From IMG/VR virus record IMGVR_UViG_2531839454_000020: DNA of 34,734 nt. The stretch is one strand, 5' to 3'. A program made the translations under genes and the position numbers. Of this stretch, positions 14,539 through 33,330 are shown one piece after another. The DNA comes from a virus. Its lineage: Duplodnaviria > Heunggongvirae > Uroviricota > Caudoviricetes. The notes beneath the pieces were generated by a model that worked only from the letters and a program-made list of their open reading frames with translations, was not told where the DNA came from and ran no database searches. The first letter of the stretch is position 1. Each line of letters starts with the position of its first letter.

Positions 14539-17500
14539 ATGCAATCAATCCAATTTAAACGAACTAATGTTTCTGGCAAAAAACCAACGCCGGAACAATT
14601 ACAGGTCGGTGAGGTAGCAATCAACCTTAAAGACCATGTTATTTTTACCAAAGACCGAGATCATGAAGTAGTTCAAATCTCTGTTTCTCCTGAAACTCAC
14701 GCGGCACTAGAATCTAAAGTTGATGCTAATAAAAAAGAACTGGATAGCACAATTGTAGTAAACGACCGCAATATTCACGCTAAAGTAGATGAAATTAAAC
14801 AAACTACTGATGCAACAATCGCAGCAAATCACGCAGAAATTAACAATAAAGTTGATGTAATTAAACGCGAAACCGACGCGACAATCGAGGCCAATAAAAA
14901 TAAAGCTGCTTCCGATCTTGCTGGTGTTAAAGCTGAATTGTCGGATACCATCAACGCTAATAAAAATGCGGCTGCTGTAGCAACTCAGGAACTGGACACC
15001 CGCATCAATAAAAAAGTTGATGATATTAAATCCCGTACCGATGCAACCATCGTAAGCAATCACAAAGCAATCAATGACAAAGTTGATTTGATTAAGGCAG
15101 AAACTGACCGCACTATCGCAGCAAATCACGCCTATGCGGAAAATCAGTTAACTGACACCTACAATAACCTTACTGGTGTGATTGCAGCCAATAAGCAAGA
15201 GGCAGCGGATAACGTCGCAGCATTAACCCGTGATGTTGAAGCCAAAAATACAGCAATTCATAGCAAAGTTGACAATAACAAGTCTTACACTGATTCTGAA
15301 TTGGCACGCTTAGAAAGCCGTATTGATGCAGCCGATGGATCAAGTGATGGTAAGTACATCAAAAAGCACGTAAACACTTGCACTGATGGCTATTTGCTGT
15401 CTAAGACCGCAAACCCTTTTGATGATCCGAGTGCTCTTAATCTTGATTACTTTGGTGCATTTCGCATGAATGACCTGGCGGGTCATATTGCAATGATCTT
15501 GCATGTTCCGCACCCATCCGGCGTTAATCATGCTCGTGGTTTTGAGTTCACTTATGGGTCTAATCCACATGCTACTGTAAGAACATACGGCTATGATGAA
15601 TTGGGACATTTGGCATATTCTCACCGCATGTATCATGAAGGTGATAAACCTACTCCGGCTGAAATTGGCGCATATTCGAAAGCAGAAATTGACCGACTGT
15701 TCCAGAAGACGCTTAATTTTGGTATCGAGGGTGGTTGGTTTAAACTAGGCACTTTGACAATGCCACAACAACACGGTCGCACGGCTAAGATCCGTTTGGT
15801 AGGTGGTAACGGTTATAACGTAGGACATAATGGAAAAGCCAATATTATCGAATTGGTGATTCGATGCGGCAACAATAGCCCGAAAGGTGTTGTATTCAAT
15901 GCGTATTATACTATTTGGCATTATGAACAACATTTTTGCGCTATTCCAACCGATGGCGACAATTACGATCTTTACGCTTACTACGGTGCACATACAGGAT
16001 TTGTTTTAGCAGAATATCAAGTTTCTTCCGGTGGTGTTTCTTTAAACCTGTTGGATACTCCTGAATATCTGGGTGGTGAAAAACCTGTTGCAGATGAAAT
16101 TTTTGATGCTCTTAACATTTCATCGTTCAATAACTTTAGCAACCGTGGGACGTTAAATTTTGCTGGCAATCATCAAGGCCAATATGATATTGAGCATTTA
16201 AACGAACAACCGACAAATGCTAAAAAGATGTTGCGTCGCTTCCGTAGTTGTGCACCAGCTACAATCTGGCATGAGACAGTTGATGATAACGCATATCGTC
16301 TTGCTACTGGATACGAAGATACAAATCAGGAATTATTGCTGACAGCAACATCCGGGTTACATGTCAAGAAATTAACATTGGATGGCGGTGTTACTGGAAA
16401 TTCTGGTATTGATATTCGTCGAGGACCAAACGAATCAAGTCATTTTAATTTCATGGATTATCGCACTGGACAAGATGTTCGTAATGGTTGGTTTGGTTTT
16501 GGTGATGGAACAACCAAAGATTTTATTTGGTGGAACGATAACGGTCAAAACTCTATAAACCTGATTGAAGATGGTGAATTGCATATTACTGGCGGTAAAG
16601 GCCAGAAAATTGTAATGAATAGCGAAGTTGCATTATCTGAAAATGCTCGTTTGGCTGTCAAAGGTGGTAACTATGGCTTAATTTTTAGAAATGATGGCGT
16701 TGGCTTCCATATTCTTACCACAGATCTCGGTGATTCATTTGGACCGTGGAATACTCGTAGACCATTCAGCTATAATTTTGCTGACGGTGGATTATATTTA
16801 GGTGGCACTGAAACTGCTCGTTGTTTGCATCTTGGAATTGATGGTAGTACCCGTCTTGAAGACAACCTTTTCTTTAAAGCTGGTTCTCGTCAATCTATGG
16901 ACTATATGGAACTCGTCCATTGGGGGGCAAGCAATACAGGTCGAAATAACGTTTTAAGTCTTCGTGACTCAAAAGGATTTTTCGCAGAATTTGAACGATT
17001 GGGTGATAATACCATTAAAAACACCTTCTTCGGGAAACTTAAAGTTAATCGTGGTTCTGACGCAATCGTCATGAATGCCGAAACGGGTGATTCGTCTATA
17101 TATTTGCTGGGTACTTGTGCTGATAATAACAACTGGTATATCGGTAAAGGTGGTGCTGATAATGGATTAGCGTTCTATAGCTATGCTACTAATGCTGCTA
17201 TCAATATTACAAACGCGGGTGATATCGCGCTAAGTCCAAAAGGTGTCGAAATGACTCATGTCAATAACGTTCGATTCTATGTTCATGGTGAACGTTGGAC
17301 TGCTAGCCAATCTGGAGGTTGGGGCGATCAATGGGGATTAGAAGCGCCGATATTTGTCGATCATGGTTATGTAGGACCAGATAGCTATTATCCAATTATT
17401 AAAGGAAGAAGTTTAATCACCAATCAAGGGTATACAACTGCCGTCGATTTTGGTATGCGTCGTGTTCCTCAAAATTGGGGGCAAGCAATTATTCGCGTTG

Positions 17501-17949
17501 GATCTGCGGAGGCATCGCCAGCGGCTGGTCATCCTCAAGCGGTGTTTGAATTTCATCATGATGGTACTTTCTATTCTCCTGGTAATGGTAACTTTAACGA
17601 TGTTTATATTCGTTCCGATGGTCGTCTGAAAATTAATGTTGAAGATTACGAAGAAAATGCGGTGGATAAGGTAAATAAACTCAAAGTTAAAACCTACGAT
17701 AAAGTTAAATCTCTTAATGACCGAGAAGTTATAGGTCATGAGATTGGTATTATCGCACAGGATTTACAAGAGGTATTACCGGAAGCTGTTAAAACCGCAA
17801 AAATTGGTGGTCTTGATAACCCAGAAGAAATTTTAACAATTTCAAACTCCGCAGTGAACGCGCTTTTAATTAAAGCGGTCCAAGAAATGAGCGAAGAAAA
17901 TAAACTTCTTCGTGAACGTCTTGCTGCAATTGAAGCTAAATTAGGGTAA
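14539..17949 (+). CDS. L-shaped-type tail fibre with C-terminal intramolecular chaperone (peptidase S74-like), 1136 aa
   Basis: N-terminal FKRTNVSGKKPTPEQLQVGEVAINLKD; four KVD-x-IK-xx-TD-x-TI-xx-NH repeats; C-terminal ~110 aa beginning S|DGRLKINVEDYE and ending in a coiled coil, as in auto-cleaving chaperone domains of T5-type fibres and endosialidases (recalled). Confidence 0.75.
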   Translation: MQSIQFKRTNVSGKKPTPEQLQVGEVAINLKDHVIFTKDRDHEVVQISVSPETHAALESKVDANKKELDSTIVVNDRNIHAKVDEIKQTTDATIAANHAEINNKVDVIKRETDATIEANKNKAASDLAGVKAELSDTINANKNAAAVATQELDTRINKKVDDIKSRTDATIVSNHKAINDKVDLIKAETDRTIAANHAYAENQLTDTYNNLTGVIAANKQEAADNVAALTRDVEAKNTAIHSKVDNNKSYTDSELARLESRIDAADGSSDGKYIKKHVNTCTDGYLLSKTANPFDDPSALNLDYFGAFRMNDLAGHIAMILHVPHPSGVNHARGFEFTYGSNPHATVRTYGYDELGHLAYSHRMYHEGDKPTPAEIGAYSKAEIDRLFQKTLNFGIEGGWFKLGTLTMPQQHGRTAKIRLVGGNGYNVGHNGKANIIELVIRCGNNSPKGVVFNAYYTIWHYEQHFCAIPTDGDNYDLYAYYGAHTGFVLAEYQVSSGGVSLNLLDTPEYLGGEKPVADEIFDALNISSFNNFSNRGTLNFAGNHQGQYDIEHLNEQPTNAKKMLRRFRSCAPATIWHETVDDNAYRLATGYEDTNQELLLTATSGLHVKKLTLDGGVTGNSGIDIRRGPNESSHFNFMDYRTGQDVRNGWFGFGDGTTKDFIWWNDNGQNSINLIEDGELHITGGKGQKIVMNSEVALSENARLAVKGGNYGLIFRNDGVGFHILTTDLGDSFGPWNTRRPFSYNFADGGLYLGGTETARCLHLGIDGSTRLEDNLFFKAGSRQSMDYMELVHWGASNTGRNNVLSLRDSKGFFAEFERLGDNTIKNTFFGKLKVNRGSDAIVMNAETGDSSIYLLGTCADNNNWYIGKGGADNGLAFYSYATNAAINITNAGDIALSPKGVEMTHVNNVRFYVHGERWTASQSGGWGDQWGLEAPIFVDHGYVGPDSYYPIIKGRSLITNQGYTTAVDFGMRRVPQNWGQAIIRVGSAEASPAAGHPQAVFEFHHDGTFYSPGNGNFNDVYIRSDGRLKINVEDYEENAVDKVNKLKVKTYDKVKSLNDREVIGHEIGIIAQDLQEVLPEAVKTAKIGGLDNPEEILTISNSAVNALLIKAVQEMSEENKLLRERLAAIEAKLG
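17617..17946 (+). other. predicted auto-cleaved intramolecular chaperone domain of the fibre
   Basis: Begins at the Asp of ...YIRS|DGRLK...; 110 aa to the stop. Confidence 0.55.
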
Positions 17950-17987
17950 TTGGAAAGCGGGGAGAAATCTCCGCTAAGGATTCTTAT

Positions 17988-18284
17988 ATGGGATATTGGG
18001 TAAGTAGTGAAATTAATACTAAAATCGATGCTTTAAAATGGCATGTATTTGATATTCCTAACGGCTATGGTACTGCTCGTGCTGGTGTCGCTGTAATGCG
18101 TCATAATGCTGGTGGTGGGTGGTCTGATGCACATATTAACGTAGATGGTTTGACCGTTGCTCGTCGTCGTGGTGGGACCAATTGGGGATCTACTATAAAT
18201 TCGTTTGTTCCTGCTGGCTGCACCGTCTCCTTTGGTTTAGGGGGTGAAGGTGGTGTTGAATATTTTAAATTCATGGAGTTTTAA
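17988..18284 (+). CDS. small Gly-rich protein, paralog 1 of 3 (98 aa), function unknown
   Basis: MGYWVSS...FDIPNGYG...CTVSFGLGGEGGVEYFKF; AAGGA SD. Confidence 0.6.
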   Translation: MGYWVSSEINTKIDALKWHVFDIPNGYGTARAGVAVMRHNAGGGWSDAHINVDGLTVARRRGGTNWGSTINSFVPAGCTVSFGLGGEGGVEYFKFMEF

Positions 18285-29751: not shown

Positions 29752-30105
29752 ATGTTAAGTAAGCATTTTTCTCGCAAGGAATTTAAATGTAAATGCGGAA
29801 AATGTGATTATGATACAATCGACGCTGAATTACTGGTGATTCTTGAGGATGTACGAGAGCACTTCGGTAAACCAGTGATTATTAACAGTGGCAACCGTTG
29901 CCCGACTCATAACAAGAATGTAGGCGGGGCAGCCAATAGCTATCACGTTCGAGGCCGCGCGGCTGACATATCGGTGAAAGGAATTTCTCCTGATATTGTT
30001 CATGCTTATCTTGATGGGAAATATCCTACTCAATACGGCTTAGGAAAATATAAAACCTTTACGCATATTGATTCCAGATCAAAAAAATCACGGTGGAATG
30101 GATAA
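29752..30105 (+). CDS. endolysin, peptidase M15 family (zinc peptidoglycan peptidase), 117 aa
   Basis: SYHVRGRAAD (H-x6-D) and FTHID zinc-ligand pattern; SD AAGGGGGT. Confidence 0.7.
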   Translation: MLSKHFSRKEFKCKCGKCDYDTIDAELLVILEDVREHFGKPVIINSGNRCPTHNKNVGGAANSYHVRGRAADISVKGISPDIVHAYLDGKYPTQYGLGKYKTFTHIDSRSKKSRWNG

Positions 30106-30469
30106 AACAAAAGCGCCCACCAGAGGCGCTTTTTTGTTAGAATATGCTGGCGACGTTAGCTATATTTCTGACCATTTTTTCATTATAGACAAATATACCG
30201 CAGATGATAAAGTGGTATTCGACGAAGTTGATCCGTCTCTGGTTGAAGCAATGAAAGAACCTGAGATCGTCATTGAAGAAACAAAAGAAGAATCTCCAGC
30301 AGTTGAACCAGTGGTCGAAGAAGTTAAGTCAGATGTTGAAGAAGCACCGGAAGTTAAAGTGAAATCTCCGGTAGCCAACATTTTCTCTGACGAAGCAGAA
30401 CATCGTTCCCCAGCGCATGACACTGATTCATTTTGCGATCTTACTGGTTTCCAAAACTACAATAATTAA
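30098..30469 (+). CDS. acidic hypothetical protein; start uncertain
   Basis: Open frame with an E/V/P-rich acidic region; its 5' end overlaps the endolysin stop and the terminator, so the true start may be internal (e.g. ATG at 30251). Confidence 0.3.
   Translation: MDKTKAPTRGAFLLEYAGDVSYISDHFFIIDKYTADDKVVFDEVDPSLVEAMKEPEIVIEETKEESPAVEPVVEEVKSDVEEAPEVKVKSPVANIFSDEAEHRSPAHDTDSFCDLTGFQNYNN
30111..30136 (+). terminator. intrinsic terminator after the endolysin gene
   Basis: aagcgcc-caccaga-ggcgctt followed by tttttt. Confidence 0.6.
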
Positions 30470-30515
30470 TTCTTATAAATAGTAGTGAATATTATTTTAT
30501 TGAGGATTCACTACT
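30451..30515 (+). promoter_or_regulatory. conserved promoter-like element CCAAAA-N17-TATAAATA-GTAGTGAA plus 10-bp inverted repeat enclosing the SD (copy 2 of 2)
   Basis: CCAAAA 30451..30456, TATAAATA 30474..30481, AGTAGTGAAT 30481..30490 pairing with ATTCACTACT 30506..30515; SD TGAGGA in the loop; ATG at 30516. Confidence 0.45.
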
Positions 30516-30806
30516 ATGAATACTACTTTAGCAAAGGATATCGAATTTACCGCAAAAAGCAAACGTGCGACCCCTCCGGTCGAATATGAAATCAGAATCA
30601 TTAAAGTTTGTCAAGCGCATGGATGGTTATACAGTGGTTTTGTGCTTCCTGTAAAGAAACCATTCCAGAACACCAAAGTTTGCATAGAAGTTAACGGAAA
30701 GGTTAAAACGCCATGTATTAGTCATGTTCTAACTGGTCAGTTTACTGGCAAAGATAGAGTATCACCGCCTAAGAAGAAGTTTAGATTTACCGAAGAAGAA
30801 CACTAA
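30516..30806 (+). CDS. hypothetical protein (96 aa)
   Basis: ORF directly after the conserved element. Confidence 0.5.
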   Translation: MNTTLAKDIEFTAKSKRATPPVEYEIRIIKVCQAHGWLYSGFVLPVKKPFQNTKVCIEVNGKVKTPCISHVLTGQFTGKDRVSPPKKKFRFTEEEH

Positions 30807-30845
30807 GAAAACGCTCGCAAGTTCTAAAAGCCGATAGGGTGGGAT

Positions 30846-31514
30846 GTGTTAGGTCTGGCTGAACCTTATCAGGGTGTTGACACTAAACTAATTCTTCGTT
30901 GTAAGTGCCACGGAAAGATTCACAAGAAAGGTGATTTACACAATAACCGCAGACAAGGCGGGTTAACATGCCCTTTGGTTAGGGGTGTACTTAAATCAAT
31001 TCAGAATGGTAGAAAACAGGTTATCAGAAACAAGTTTGCACAGCGCTCTATGCACTTTTATCTAATTCGTGTTGGCGAGAAGTTTTTCAAATATGGAATT
31101 ACCACTCGCAAAGATCCGATGCAACGGGTAAGAGAACACCAGAAGCACACCAGCGAGAAAATCACCTTTGAATGCTCACATTTGTTTAACATTGGATGGA
31201 AAGCTGGTGATTTAGAAATGGGGATTAAAAAGAATATTCAGGGCAAGAAAATCCCACGTAAGGTAATGAATAGCGGATTCACAGAAACGCTACCGATTAG
31301 CAAGCTGAAAGATGTTAAATCATTCATCAATGAATACATCCACACCAACCCATCTAAGCCAATGTATTTTGATGATACCAACGCAATCAATCTGAACAAC
31401 TACATTAGTGATGAAGACATAGAACGAGATTTATCGCAGTGGATGAATGCACCGTTAGCTGATTTAATACCGGAAGACTTAGAACTCGATTTAAGCCCTT
31501 TAGAGGCTCTTTAA
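30846..31514 (+). CDS. GIY-YIG-type homing endonuclease-like protein with N-terminal Cys/His-rich extension (222 aa, GTG start)
   Basis: FYLIRVGEKFFKYGITTRKDPMQRVREH ... TFECSHLFNI ... E..IKK resembles the GIY-YIG catalytic core (recalled); preceded by CKCHGKIHKKGDLHNNRRQGGLTCPL. Confidence 0.45.
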   Translation: MLGLAEPYQGVDTKLILRCKCHGKIHKKGDLHNNRRQGGLTCPLVRGVLKSIQNGRKQVIRNKFAQRSMHFYLIRVGEKFFKYGITTRKDPMQRVREHQKHTSEKITFECSHLFNIGWKAGDLEMGIKKNIQGKKIPRKVMNSGFTETLPISKLKDVKSFINEYIHTNPSKPMYFDDTNAINLNNYISDEDIERDLSQWMNAPLADLIPEDLELDLSPLEAL

Positions 31515-31530
31515 TACAATTAAATTAAAA

Positions 31531-31550
31531 AGGGGTACAGATGTACCCCT
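31531..31550. terminator. hairpin between convergent genes (bidirectional terminator candidate)
   Basis: aggggtac-agat-gtacccct, A/T-rich on both sides, between the + stop at 31514 and the minus stop at 31588. Confidence 0.5.
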
Positions 31551-31587
31551 TAAAGTGTTTAGCTCGTTATACGTCGATTTAGGCCGC

Positions 31588-33267
31588 TTAAATTCCAAAT
31601 TCCTGTAATGGACCTGGTATTTCCTCTTCTGGTTTCCAGTTCTTATCTGTCAGCATGTCTAAACATGGATGCAGAACAAGCCCGTTGCTCTCCAGAATCT
31701 GCCTATCATTGATAGTTTTCAAATCAATGAATATCCGGCCTTTCCTCGTTCCTCTTGAATTTTCTATTACAACTCTCTGGGTCTTTCCATCGATGTATTC
31801 CAGTACAAACAAGTTTTTGTTTCTGTCAATCCTGCTACACCCGATCCGCTTTAGAGCTTGCTTAATCTTAAACCGGACCTTTAGTCGTTCCTCGTTATAA
31901 ACATCTTCTAAATCAAATTCTGCGAGCTTCTCCCAGCCTTGAGAGTCCACAGAATACATTTCCTCTTCTGCCATCTTGATCTGATTGTAGAGTGTTTCAC
32001 GCTCGCTATTGAGGGTAGTAATCTGATCGGCTAGCTCCTTCGTTGCTCCTGTCATAGCAGAAAGGGCAATCAGGTTATCAATCTTGCGTGATATTTCATC
32101 AACCTGTACTTTCAAAGCCGGAACCGGATTAGCCTTGTCCTCAGCAATCCAGATTTTATCAGCCAGCAATTGCAATACAGCTTTCTCTAATTGATCACCT
32201 CGAAAACTCCAGTTTGGATGCTCGCAATCAAGTCTACGTGAACGGGTCGCATCACATGTATAACGATACTGGTCAGAACGTTTGTTTGTTCCCTTCACTT
32301 TAACCATAGCGCAGCCGCAATGATCACATTTCAATAGGCCAATACCACTAAGCAGGGGGATCGGTTTAACTTCTTCCTTCTCTCCAAAGTTCCATGCTCT
32401 AGCACCAATATTTTTCTTAAGGTGATAGAACGTAGCATCATCAATAACACGAGGGTAATAATCCTTTAACTCATAGTTAACGCCATCTACAGAGACTTCC
32501 TTGATACCAATCAAAGCGCGGGTATGGAACAACCTTTCAACCATTGCCCGTGACCATTTTGAATGCTTCTTGTTGCTTACTGCTGGTGGTGGTGCATATG
32601 TCTCGTTAAGGTGATCCAGTATTTCGGCGGTTGAACGTCCATTCTTCCGTAATTCCACAATCTCCTGAACAACAGGGAAGTACACCGGATGAGGCAGCAC
32701 ATAACCGGAAGTGGTATCAGTCCACCACATATTCTTTCCAACTTCCTCGATTGCCACTGCCGGATTCTGGGGATTTTCTTGATGAGCTTTAATCTTAATC
32801 AGTGCGCTTGAGTTAGTACGATTGCGCTTAGTCTGACTTTCCTCATTACCACGGATGAATAAAAGGATGGAGAACATCAGGTCCATCGGATTAGCGGTAA
32901 CAGTATCCAGCGAGTAGATCTTGTTATCCATGCCAGTAACAATGGTTATTCCCCTACGGATGATTGAAAGGAATAACTCCTGCGCACTGACAATATCGGC
33001 ACGGGATAAGCGGTCCAAGTTTTCAATGAATAGCCAGCTACCAACAGGAACGGATCTACCAATTGCATCAAGGAAACGAGATAACGCCCCTGTTTTAGAG
33101 TTAGCACCCTTAAACGCAGATACACCCAGATCCTGATAATCATTTACCAGTTCAAGGTCATACTTTGCCGCAACCTCTCTCGCCATCCTGATTTGTCGTT
33201 CATAACTCGAACCATCATTCTGACGCATAGACGAGAAGCGAATATACGAATACAGTTTAGTTTTCAT
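31588..33267 (-). CDS. large serine recombinase (integrase/resolvase family), ~559 aa
   Basis: N-terminal MKTKLYSYIRFSSMRQ...YERQ resolvase catalytic motif, Cys-rich CDHCGC...C zinc ribbon, C-terminal coiled coil; the track start at 33282 adds 5 residues. Confidence 0.8.
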   Translation of the reverse strand: MKTKLYSYIRFSSMRQNDGSSYERQIRMAREVAAKYDLELVNDYQDLGVSAFKGANSKTGALSRFLDAIGRSVPVGSWLFIENLDRLSRADIVSAQELFLSIIRRGITIVTGMDNKIYSLDTVTANPMDLMFSILLFIRGNEESQTKRNRTNSSALIKIKAHQENPQNPAVAIEEVGKNMWWTDTTSGYVLPHPVYFPVVQEIVELRKNGRSTAEILDHLNETYAPPPAVSNKKHSKWSRAMVERLFHTRALIGIKEVSVDGVNYELKDYYPRVIDDATFYHLKKNIGARAWNFGEKEEVKPIPLLSGIGLLKCDHCGCAMVKVKGTNKRSDQYRYTCDATRSRRLDCEHPNWSFRGDQLEKAVLQLLADKIWIAEDKANPVPALKVQVDEISRKIDNLIALSAMTGATKELADQITTLNSERETLYNQIKMAEEEMYSVDSQGWEKLAEFDLEDVYNEERLKVRFKIKQALKRIGCSRIDRNKNLFVLEYIDGKTQRVVIENSRGTRKGRIFIDLKTINDRQILESNGLVLHPCLDMLTDKNWKPEEEIPGPLQEFGI

Positions 33268-33330
33268 ACCATTTCCAAACAAAAACGCCCCTACCGCGTA
33301 TTATAACGATAGGGGCTAGGTGATTAAAGA

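Follow-up and report, generated by a model that had tools for sequence, protein, structure and literature searches.

The interval 30516-31514 of the DNA stretch analysed here (34,734 nucleotides, hereafter the window) is most probably a nonsense-disrupted allele of a 332-codon prophage gene coding for a nuclease-like protein of the CapR-finger/T5orf172 type. The open reading frame that a sequence-only reading had singled out at this locus was found as described, running from a GTG at 30846 to a TAA at 31512-31514 and coding for 222 amino acids. That it is a complete gene, beginning at the GTG with an N-terminus of its own, does not hold, since an in-frame 96-aa ORF lies upstream, the 999 bp form one CDS in relatives and the start that is conserved lies at the ATG of 30516. 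The features of the locus are the following.

30516..31514, plus strand: span of the intact gene, 332 codons and stop; whole in relatives, cut here by two in-frame TAA codons
30516..30806, plus strand: 5' fragment ORF, 96 aa from an ATG, WP_249438877.1; conserved N-terminus and CapR-like unit 1
30576-30734, plus strand: CapR-like unit 1, residues 21-73; zinc ligands all lost
30792..30941, plus strand: CapR-like unit 2, residues 93-142 of the intact protein; helix, three strands, helix
30804..30806, plus strand: first nonsense codon, TTA to TAA at Leu97 (T to A at 30805); private to the window
30825..30827, plus strand: second nonsense codon, TAC to TAA at Tyr104 (C to A at 30827); private to the window
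30846..31514, plus strand: reported ORF, the 3' remnant, 222 aa, WP_249438878.1; residues 111-332 of the intact protein
30900-30971, plus strand: putative CxCH...C zinc-finger remnant of unit 2, with C129, C131, H132 and C152
31047, plus strand: P178S substitution, private to the window; this Pro is invariant within the family
31050..31346, plus strand: T5orf172/MUG113-like core, GIY-YIG superfamily, residues 179-277
31059-61, 31125-27 and 31284-86, plus strand: core signature residues Y182, R204 and E257, to which K192-x-G194 is added
31347..31511, plus strand: subfamily-specific C-terminal extension, residues 278-332, predicted disordered, with the acidic tail PLADL.PEDLELDLSPLEAL
31530..31551, no strand assigned: G+C-rich hairpin of 9 bp between the convergent stop codons of nuclease and recombinase
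31588..33282, minus strand: large serine recombinase (prophage integrase), 564 codons; Resolvase, Recombinase and Zn_ribbon_recom domains, PHROG 95 'integrase'
L002 1715-2713: intact relative CDS in ETEC1739, WP_001098365.1, 332 aa
L001 2388-3386: intact relative CDS in CUVET21-37, WP_053890392.1, 332 aa

The 96-codon ORF (30516-30806) and the 222-codon ORF share one reading frame and have a joint span of 999 bp. In related E. coli prophages this 999-bp interval is a single CDS annotated as a 332-aa 'hypothetical protein', and the nucleotide alignment of the window with these prophages had no gaps and 99% identity. Equal-length single CDSs were present at 99.0-99.5% nucleotide identity in 16 complete E. 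coli genomes, and a search of 5426 complete genomes of the species retrieved the gene at 80% or more of its length in 18, annotated in all of them as ordinary coding sequence. The window allele was found in none of these 18 gene-carrying genomes, the nearest being 99.5% identical. The profile (HMM) of the family aligned to the window in two collinear pieces, positions 1-96 with 30504-30803 (E 3.5e-40) and positions 106-332 with 30828-31511 (E 5e-124), and when the family profiles were run against all six frames of the entire window, neither a paralogue nor any further match was detected. The structure of the gene and its disruption are established.

The N-terminal pattern MKTAFAKDI...YE.RII..C..GW.Y.GF.LP is kept throughout the full-length homologues, and in its looser form, MxxxFAKDI...YE.RII..C..GW.Y.GF.LP, even in the 361-aa homologue of phage Whisky (Krischvirus), indicating that the true start is the ATG at 30516. 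With TAA at codons 97 and 104 the full-length protein cannot be made, and because of these two nonsense mutations the GTG at 30846 is merely the first possible start after the second stop. The GTG start and the odd N-terminus are thus artefacts of the gene break. Against eight intact alleles, five substitutions are private to the window: T26I, L97*, Y104*, P178S and T318I. All of them alter the protein and none is synonymous, which fits decay. Both stop codons are known from a single draft assembly: the exact 222-aa and 96-aa products were found in one public contig only (AQCY01000078.1 of GCA_000354335.2). The 90%-identity cluster of the window products has 396 members, all unnamed; among the 15 of these that were listed, 11 are of 332 aa and one of 330 aa, two shorter entries bear the label 'partial', and the remaining one is the 222-aa product of the window. 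The public 'hypothetical proteins' WP_249438877.1 and WP_249438878.1 are therefore fragments of one broken gene, and the 332-aa family (396 sequences in the 90% cluster) can be placed among the CapR-finger/T5orf172 endonucleases, a family resembling homing endonucleases. The reported ORF itself holds nothing to surprise a specialist; the lesson is that an ORF read from the first start past a nonsense mutation can mimic a novel domain architecture.

We rejected the idea that the stops are bypassed by programmed readthrough or recoding, since there are two TAA codons and both are absent in the eight intact alleles examined (8/8); moreover, no mechanism of this kind is known in E. coli. That the two stops are errors of the single draft assembly, the gene being intact in the real strain, is very unlikely. 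The allele is indeed on one public contig only and the two changes, both to A, are 22 nt apart, but three more private missense changes are spread over the same 999 bp, which looks like real divergence and decay, and substitution errors are uncommon in short-read consensus assemblies. Another alternative is that the 222-codon ORF is a real expressed gene, with ribosomes starting at the GTG at 30846 and producing a shorter, one-finger nuclease. We regard this as unlikely, even though it has some attractive points. There is a Shine-Dalgarno-like AGGGUGGG 2-3 nt upstream of the GTG, with a predicted pairing to the 3' end of 16S rRNA of -8.0 kcal/mol. This value is the same as the median for 26 likely gene starts of the window and places the site among the best 3.7% of arbitrary positions. 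Proteins that combine a single CapR unit with T5orf172 do occur in nature (190-195 aa; those of 193-194 aa were found here), and the remnant still has unit 2 as well as all signature residues of the core. However, all intact alleles read straight through the stretch from AGGGUGGG to the GTG as plain coding sequence (K-P-I-G-W-D-V), so that the start site has not been selected as such. Besides, the remnant starts inside unit 2, whose first helix covers residues 93-107, and bears P178S, at a family-invariant Pro placed directly before the first strand of the core. The exclusively non-synonymous private changes, fitting decay, and the single contig carrying the allele also speak against an expressed gene. 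Some 222-aa product may, to judge by the sequence, arise by re-initiation; a function for it is distinctly improbable. We therefore keep to the broken gene as the reading of this locus and describe below the protein coded by its intact version.

The intact protein is a divergent, previously unnamed member of the known CapR-finger/T5orf172 endonuclease family. Direct Pfam matches were all below cut-off: CapR (PF21817) at residues 102-134 with E 0.014 and 16 bits (cut-off 24.2), and MUG113 (PF13455) at residues 192-273 with E 0.06-0.13 and 13-14 bits (cut-off 22.3), while the GIY-YIG family PF01541 gave no match for this protein. An NCBIfam scan of the intact protein and of its 193-aa neighbour (see below) gave no match either, and the PDB sequence search retrieved only a spurious 33-residue match to STU2 (E 0.19). 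A clearer match was that to PHROG 681 'endonuclease' (7e-20), in which residues 88-292 aligned with positions 363-556 of 576. By these positions, the protein resembles the C-terminal part of longer, many-repeat phage endonucleases.

In the homologue search, E. coli, Proteus and Salmonella supplied full-length relatives (325-335 aa) with identities down to 48%; for remoter ones, CapR and DUF723 domains are already on record. When 1.84 billion cluster representatives were searched with the profile, 2072 proteins were retrieved at E<=1e-3 (477 at E<=1e-10), mostly of 250-500 aa, many of them with several matched stretches (repeats) and with the nuclease part at the C-terminal end. Among 58 sampled homologues, CapR was detected at E<=1e-3 in 44 (best match 4.6e-46), and at the same threshold DUF4379 in 18, MUG113 in 14, DUF723 in 13 and T5orf172 in 4; DUF4379 is a treble-clef zinc finger and, like DUF723, related to CapR. 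Homologues retrieved with E values of 1e-8 to 1e-17 or better reach the MUG113 or T5orf172 cut-offs, one of them (P0018) with 22.7 bits. Residues C129, Y182, K192, G194, R204, E234, G254, E257 and T258 were invariant in 58/58. Taking the 16 close and the 58 distant homologues together, Y182, K192-[YF]193-G194, R204 and E257 do not vary, and all of these are present in the window remnant. With hhalign, the neighbouring 193-aa nuclease, which is Pfam-positive, was matched with no more than 53% probability, at E 1.4e-4, which counts against the assignment. The family relationship is nevertheless established, and the homologues and PHROG 681 provide solid transitive evidence, at the level of sequence, for placing the protein in the GIY-YIG superfamily (Pfam clan CL0418), probably in its T5orf172/MUG113 branch. 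The tblastn search of the 222-aa ORF against 50,697 phage records found just two, JK32 and Whisky, at about 35% identity, indicating that this subfamily is essentially restricted to prophages.

The AlphaFold model, built from a 16-sequence alignment, had a mean pLDDT of 79. It contains two alike small units, residues 21-73 and 93-142, each consisting of a helix, three strands and a helix, followed by a linker and a compact domain at 179-277. This domain has the order strand, strand, helix, strand, helix, short strand, helix, and in it the GIY-YIG core fold, a sheet of three strands (the GIY strand, the YIG strand and one more) packed on helices, is present. The C-terminal tail is modelled with low confidence. 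Tyr182 is followed at +11 by Phe/Tyr193-Gly194, at +10 from there by Arg204 and later by Glu257, a spacing that we take to fit Tyr6, Tyr17, Arg27 and Glu75 of I-TevI. Structural searches in BFVD gave 107 matches named CapR homology, GIY-YIG, T5 Orf172 or homing endonuclease, with 250-360 alignment columns, the best of them named 'CapR homology domain-containing protein'. Foldseek with the full-length model retrieved nothing from the PDB at E<=0.001, and the weak top matches above this value (dsRBD-like and glyoxalase folds) were discounted. The sequence-only reading had spoken of a GIY-YIG-like endonuclease. At superfamily level this is right; the direct Pfam scores, below their cut-offs and with no PF01541 match, speak against it.

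The FYLIRV of the core begins at residue 71 of the 222-aa ORF, about where the earlier reading had put it, and is preceded by CKCHGKIHKKGDLHNNRRQGGLTCPL, residues 19-44 of that ORF. The Cys/His-rich extension that had seemed unusual there is CapR-like unit 2. Neither of the two units has the four ligands of CapR (two Cys pairs about 20-26 residues apart). Three Cys that hardly vary across the wider family, at alignment positions 59, 79 and 82, are all missing from unit 1. Unit 2 keeps C129, H132 and C152, with Val or Ile at the site of the fourth ligand, position 155; C131, which is nearly invariant, may stand in for this missing ligand. Judging from these residues, both units appear to be degenerate fingers, and the zinc site of unit 2 is putative. 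In the published survey of T5orf172, a subfamily of GIY-YIG, 200/229 (87%) of the homing endonucleases had at least one CapR, DUF723 or DUF4397 zinc-finger DNA-binding domain, often in tandem and on the side away from the nuclease domain, and in the ICP1 proteins the T5orf172 domain is C-terminal (Barth et al., PMC10448857). Finger repeats at the N-terminus and a nuclease at the C-terminus being the published norm, the architecture found here is not unusual. At the other end of the protein, the acidic tail PLADLEPEDLELDLSPLEAL is kept even in paralogues just 36-37% identical overall (394 aa, P0014 and P0016) and is missing from most of the wider family and from the Whisky homologue. It may be a docking peptide.

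Presence and absence at collinear sites were found in two cases within the family. Phage Whisky carries its 361-aa homologue on a clean insert of 1.1 kb, placed between the stop of uvsW and the terminator preceding uvsW.1; phage Phi1 lacks this insert. The second case concerns the genes of 193-194 aa with CapR and T5orf172 that lie on the minus strand between the endolysin and an Inh-like ORF (L001 1336-1917 and L004 1096-1680). They are present in some sister prophages and absent from others, and absent from the window at about 30106-30140; they represent a second mobile nuclease cassette in one 1.5-kb region. Strain ETEC4090, which has a further homologue of 345 aa upstream of its endolysin, was the only relative found without the 332-codon gene, and it is a deletion derivative (L003 2189-2268, equivalent to window 30106-31514). 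After the endolysin stop, 25 nt of the Inh-like ORF are fused (...GAACC joined to GGAAG...) to the final 46 nt of the nuclease gene, giving a 24-codon in-frame mini-ORF, MDKTKAPLVEVMKEPEDLELDLSPLEAL. ETEC4090 was therefore rejected as a pristine endonuclease-less site, as the scar keeps the 25-nt and 46-nt remnants. An exact search of the window for the junction sequence did not find it. Deleted in ETEC4090 and inactivated by nonsense mutations in the window strain, the gene is dispensable.

The whole element is about 35 kb long, prophage-like and located in ycdX, next to the curli (csg) operon. Its genes include those of terminase, portal, capsid, tail tube, tail tip, an M15 endolysin, a Rha regulator and the large serine recombinase; no obvious replication or repressor genes are annotated in the relative inspected. 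The nuclease gene converges on that of the serine recombinase (31588-33282, minus strand), as had been noted in the sequence-only reading, with the hairpin 31530-31551 between their stops; this hairpin is terminator-like, with a T-run on the recombinase side. Another strong hairpin, of 10 pairs and followed by a T-run, is found at 30109-30133, right after the endolysin stop (30105), in a region that is rearranged in ETEC4090. Since it lies inside an ORF annotated from 30098, it is doubtful that the first 12 or so codons of this ORF are coding. The ORF in question (30098-30469, plus strand, 123 aa) lies between the endolysin and the nuclease gene and has a core of 258 nt, 30195-30452, that is 97-98% identical to inh of Krischvirus, in the inh reading frame, and 91% identical in amino acids to residues 78-169 of the Inh of phage Phi1. 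Inh is the inhibitor of the prohead protease gp21. Its sequence suggests that a temperate prophage has recently taken up DNA of a lytic phage, right next to a gene that resembles those of homing endonucleases. In Whisky the homologous endonuclease is one gene (uvsW) away from inh. A second exchange with T4-type lytic phages was detected at about 16135-18255 (ORFs 14539-17949 and 17988-18284), where about 2.1 kb are 97% identical to Krischvirus phage KFS-EC. In KFS-EC this DNA belongs to the gene of the long tail fibre's distal subunit and to the gene after it, and the segment is presumably a receptor-binding module. The published view is that nuclease genes of this kind sit at boundaries of genetic exchange, and the present locus, where the gene has as its neighbour a stretch all but identical with lytic T4-type phage DNA, is an example from a temperate phage.

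The gene is an accessory gene of the E. coli prophage in ycdX, placed between endolysin and serine integrase. In the mechanism that we propose, its intact product would act as a free-standing nuclease of the CapR-finger/T5orf172 type, similar to homing endonucleases. The two tandem CapR-type units would jointly recognise a long, degenerate DNA site, and the C-terminal GIY-YIG-superfamily domain, tethered by the linker, would cleave nearby DNA, with Tyr182, Lys192-x-Gly194 and Arg204 acting in cleavage and Glu257 holding the metal. Repair from the gene-carrying copy would then spread the gene. In the window strain the two TAA stops (codons 97 and 104) leave the 222-codon ORF from the downstream GTG. 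We infer the nuclease activity, the roles of single residues and the homing role; the residues would have these roles by analogy with I-TevI and with Odn (PMC10448857).

It is possible, if doubtful, that the intact 332-aa protein is instead a domesticated factor of the prophage and not a selfish homing endonuclease, either a CapR-like DNA-binding repressor or an exclusion or defence nuclease directed against superinfecting phages or satellites. Domestication has precedents in the CapR repressor (PMC8096241) and in the anti-satellite nucleases Odn and Gp5, the Odn of ICP1 being aimed at PLE (PMC10448857). The position of the gene in the accessory region beside the integrase and 46 bp downstream of the ORF with the Krischvirus Inh-like core would suit such a factor, as would the conserved acidic tail that typical family members lack, but the invariant signature residues of the nuclease argue against a pure repressor, and a dispensable selfish gene would account no less well for the deletion in one strain and the nonsense mutations in another. 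The matches to PD-Lambda-1 obtained with PADLOC (E 1e-3 to 7e-3) point in the direction of defence, yet they are weak, short (22-49 residues) and limited to the GIY-YIG motif, and membership in that defence system was not accepted. A more specific version, in which the intact nuclease with its acidic tail and the adjacent Inh-derived ORF form a joint exclusion module against lytic Krischvirus (RB49-like T4-type) phages, is highly improbable and is mentioned as a speculation. If it were true, the nuclease would cut the DNA of the invader, as Odn cuts PLE, the recently captured Inh fragment would hamper the prohead protease of Krischvirus phages, and the window strain would have lost the nuclease arm. 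A nuclease gene of the homing type, broken in the window strain, remains our preferred reading.

Canonical GIY-YIG enzymes include I-TevI, the Seg proteins of T4, UvrC (in its N-terminal domain) and SLX1, and the first three of these start with the catalytic domain and continue with the DNA-binding modules. Compared with them the order is reversed here, as in the T5orf172 proteins, and in the comparison with I-TevI no counterpart of its conserved Asn N90 was found, in addition to the lack of a match to PF01541. With the T5orf172 homing endonucleases (gp165 and gp174 of Vibrio phage ICP1 and those of T5-like and T4-like phages; PMC10448857) the protein shares the order of modules and the Tyr...Lys-x-Gly...Arg...Glu pattern, as well as the free-standing genes whose presence varies between related phage genomes. 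Unlike them, the subfamily described here is too divergent for any Pfam cut-off, its unit 1 is without zinc ligands and its unit 2 has Val/Ile in place of the fourth ligand, Cys, and the extra Cys131. It also differs in the 55-residue C-terminal extension with the acidic tail and in its home in temperate prophages, and the window copy is broken. The 193-aa WP_162734319.1, a 'GIY-YIG nuclease family protein' (L001 1336-1917), has in common with it PHROG 681, a CapR unit with T5orf172 (in this neighbour both above the Pfam cut-offs) and the same endolysin-integrase region. However, there is one finger unit only, and the gene is on the opposite strand, only distantly related (hhalign E 1.4e-4) and absent from the window. 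Finally, the protein shares a DNA-binding module with the PLE CapR, the repressor of the capsid operon in a satellite of Vibrio cholerae phages and the source of the name of PF21817 (PMC8096241). This module is a small helix-plus-sheet unit, and in CapR its Cys-rich zinc site is required, the Cys pairs being needed for DNA binding (Netter et al., PMC8096241). PLE CapR is a domesticated repressor without a nuclease domain, whereas the protein described here retains a nuclease core with its conserved signature residues.
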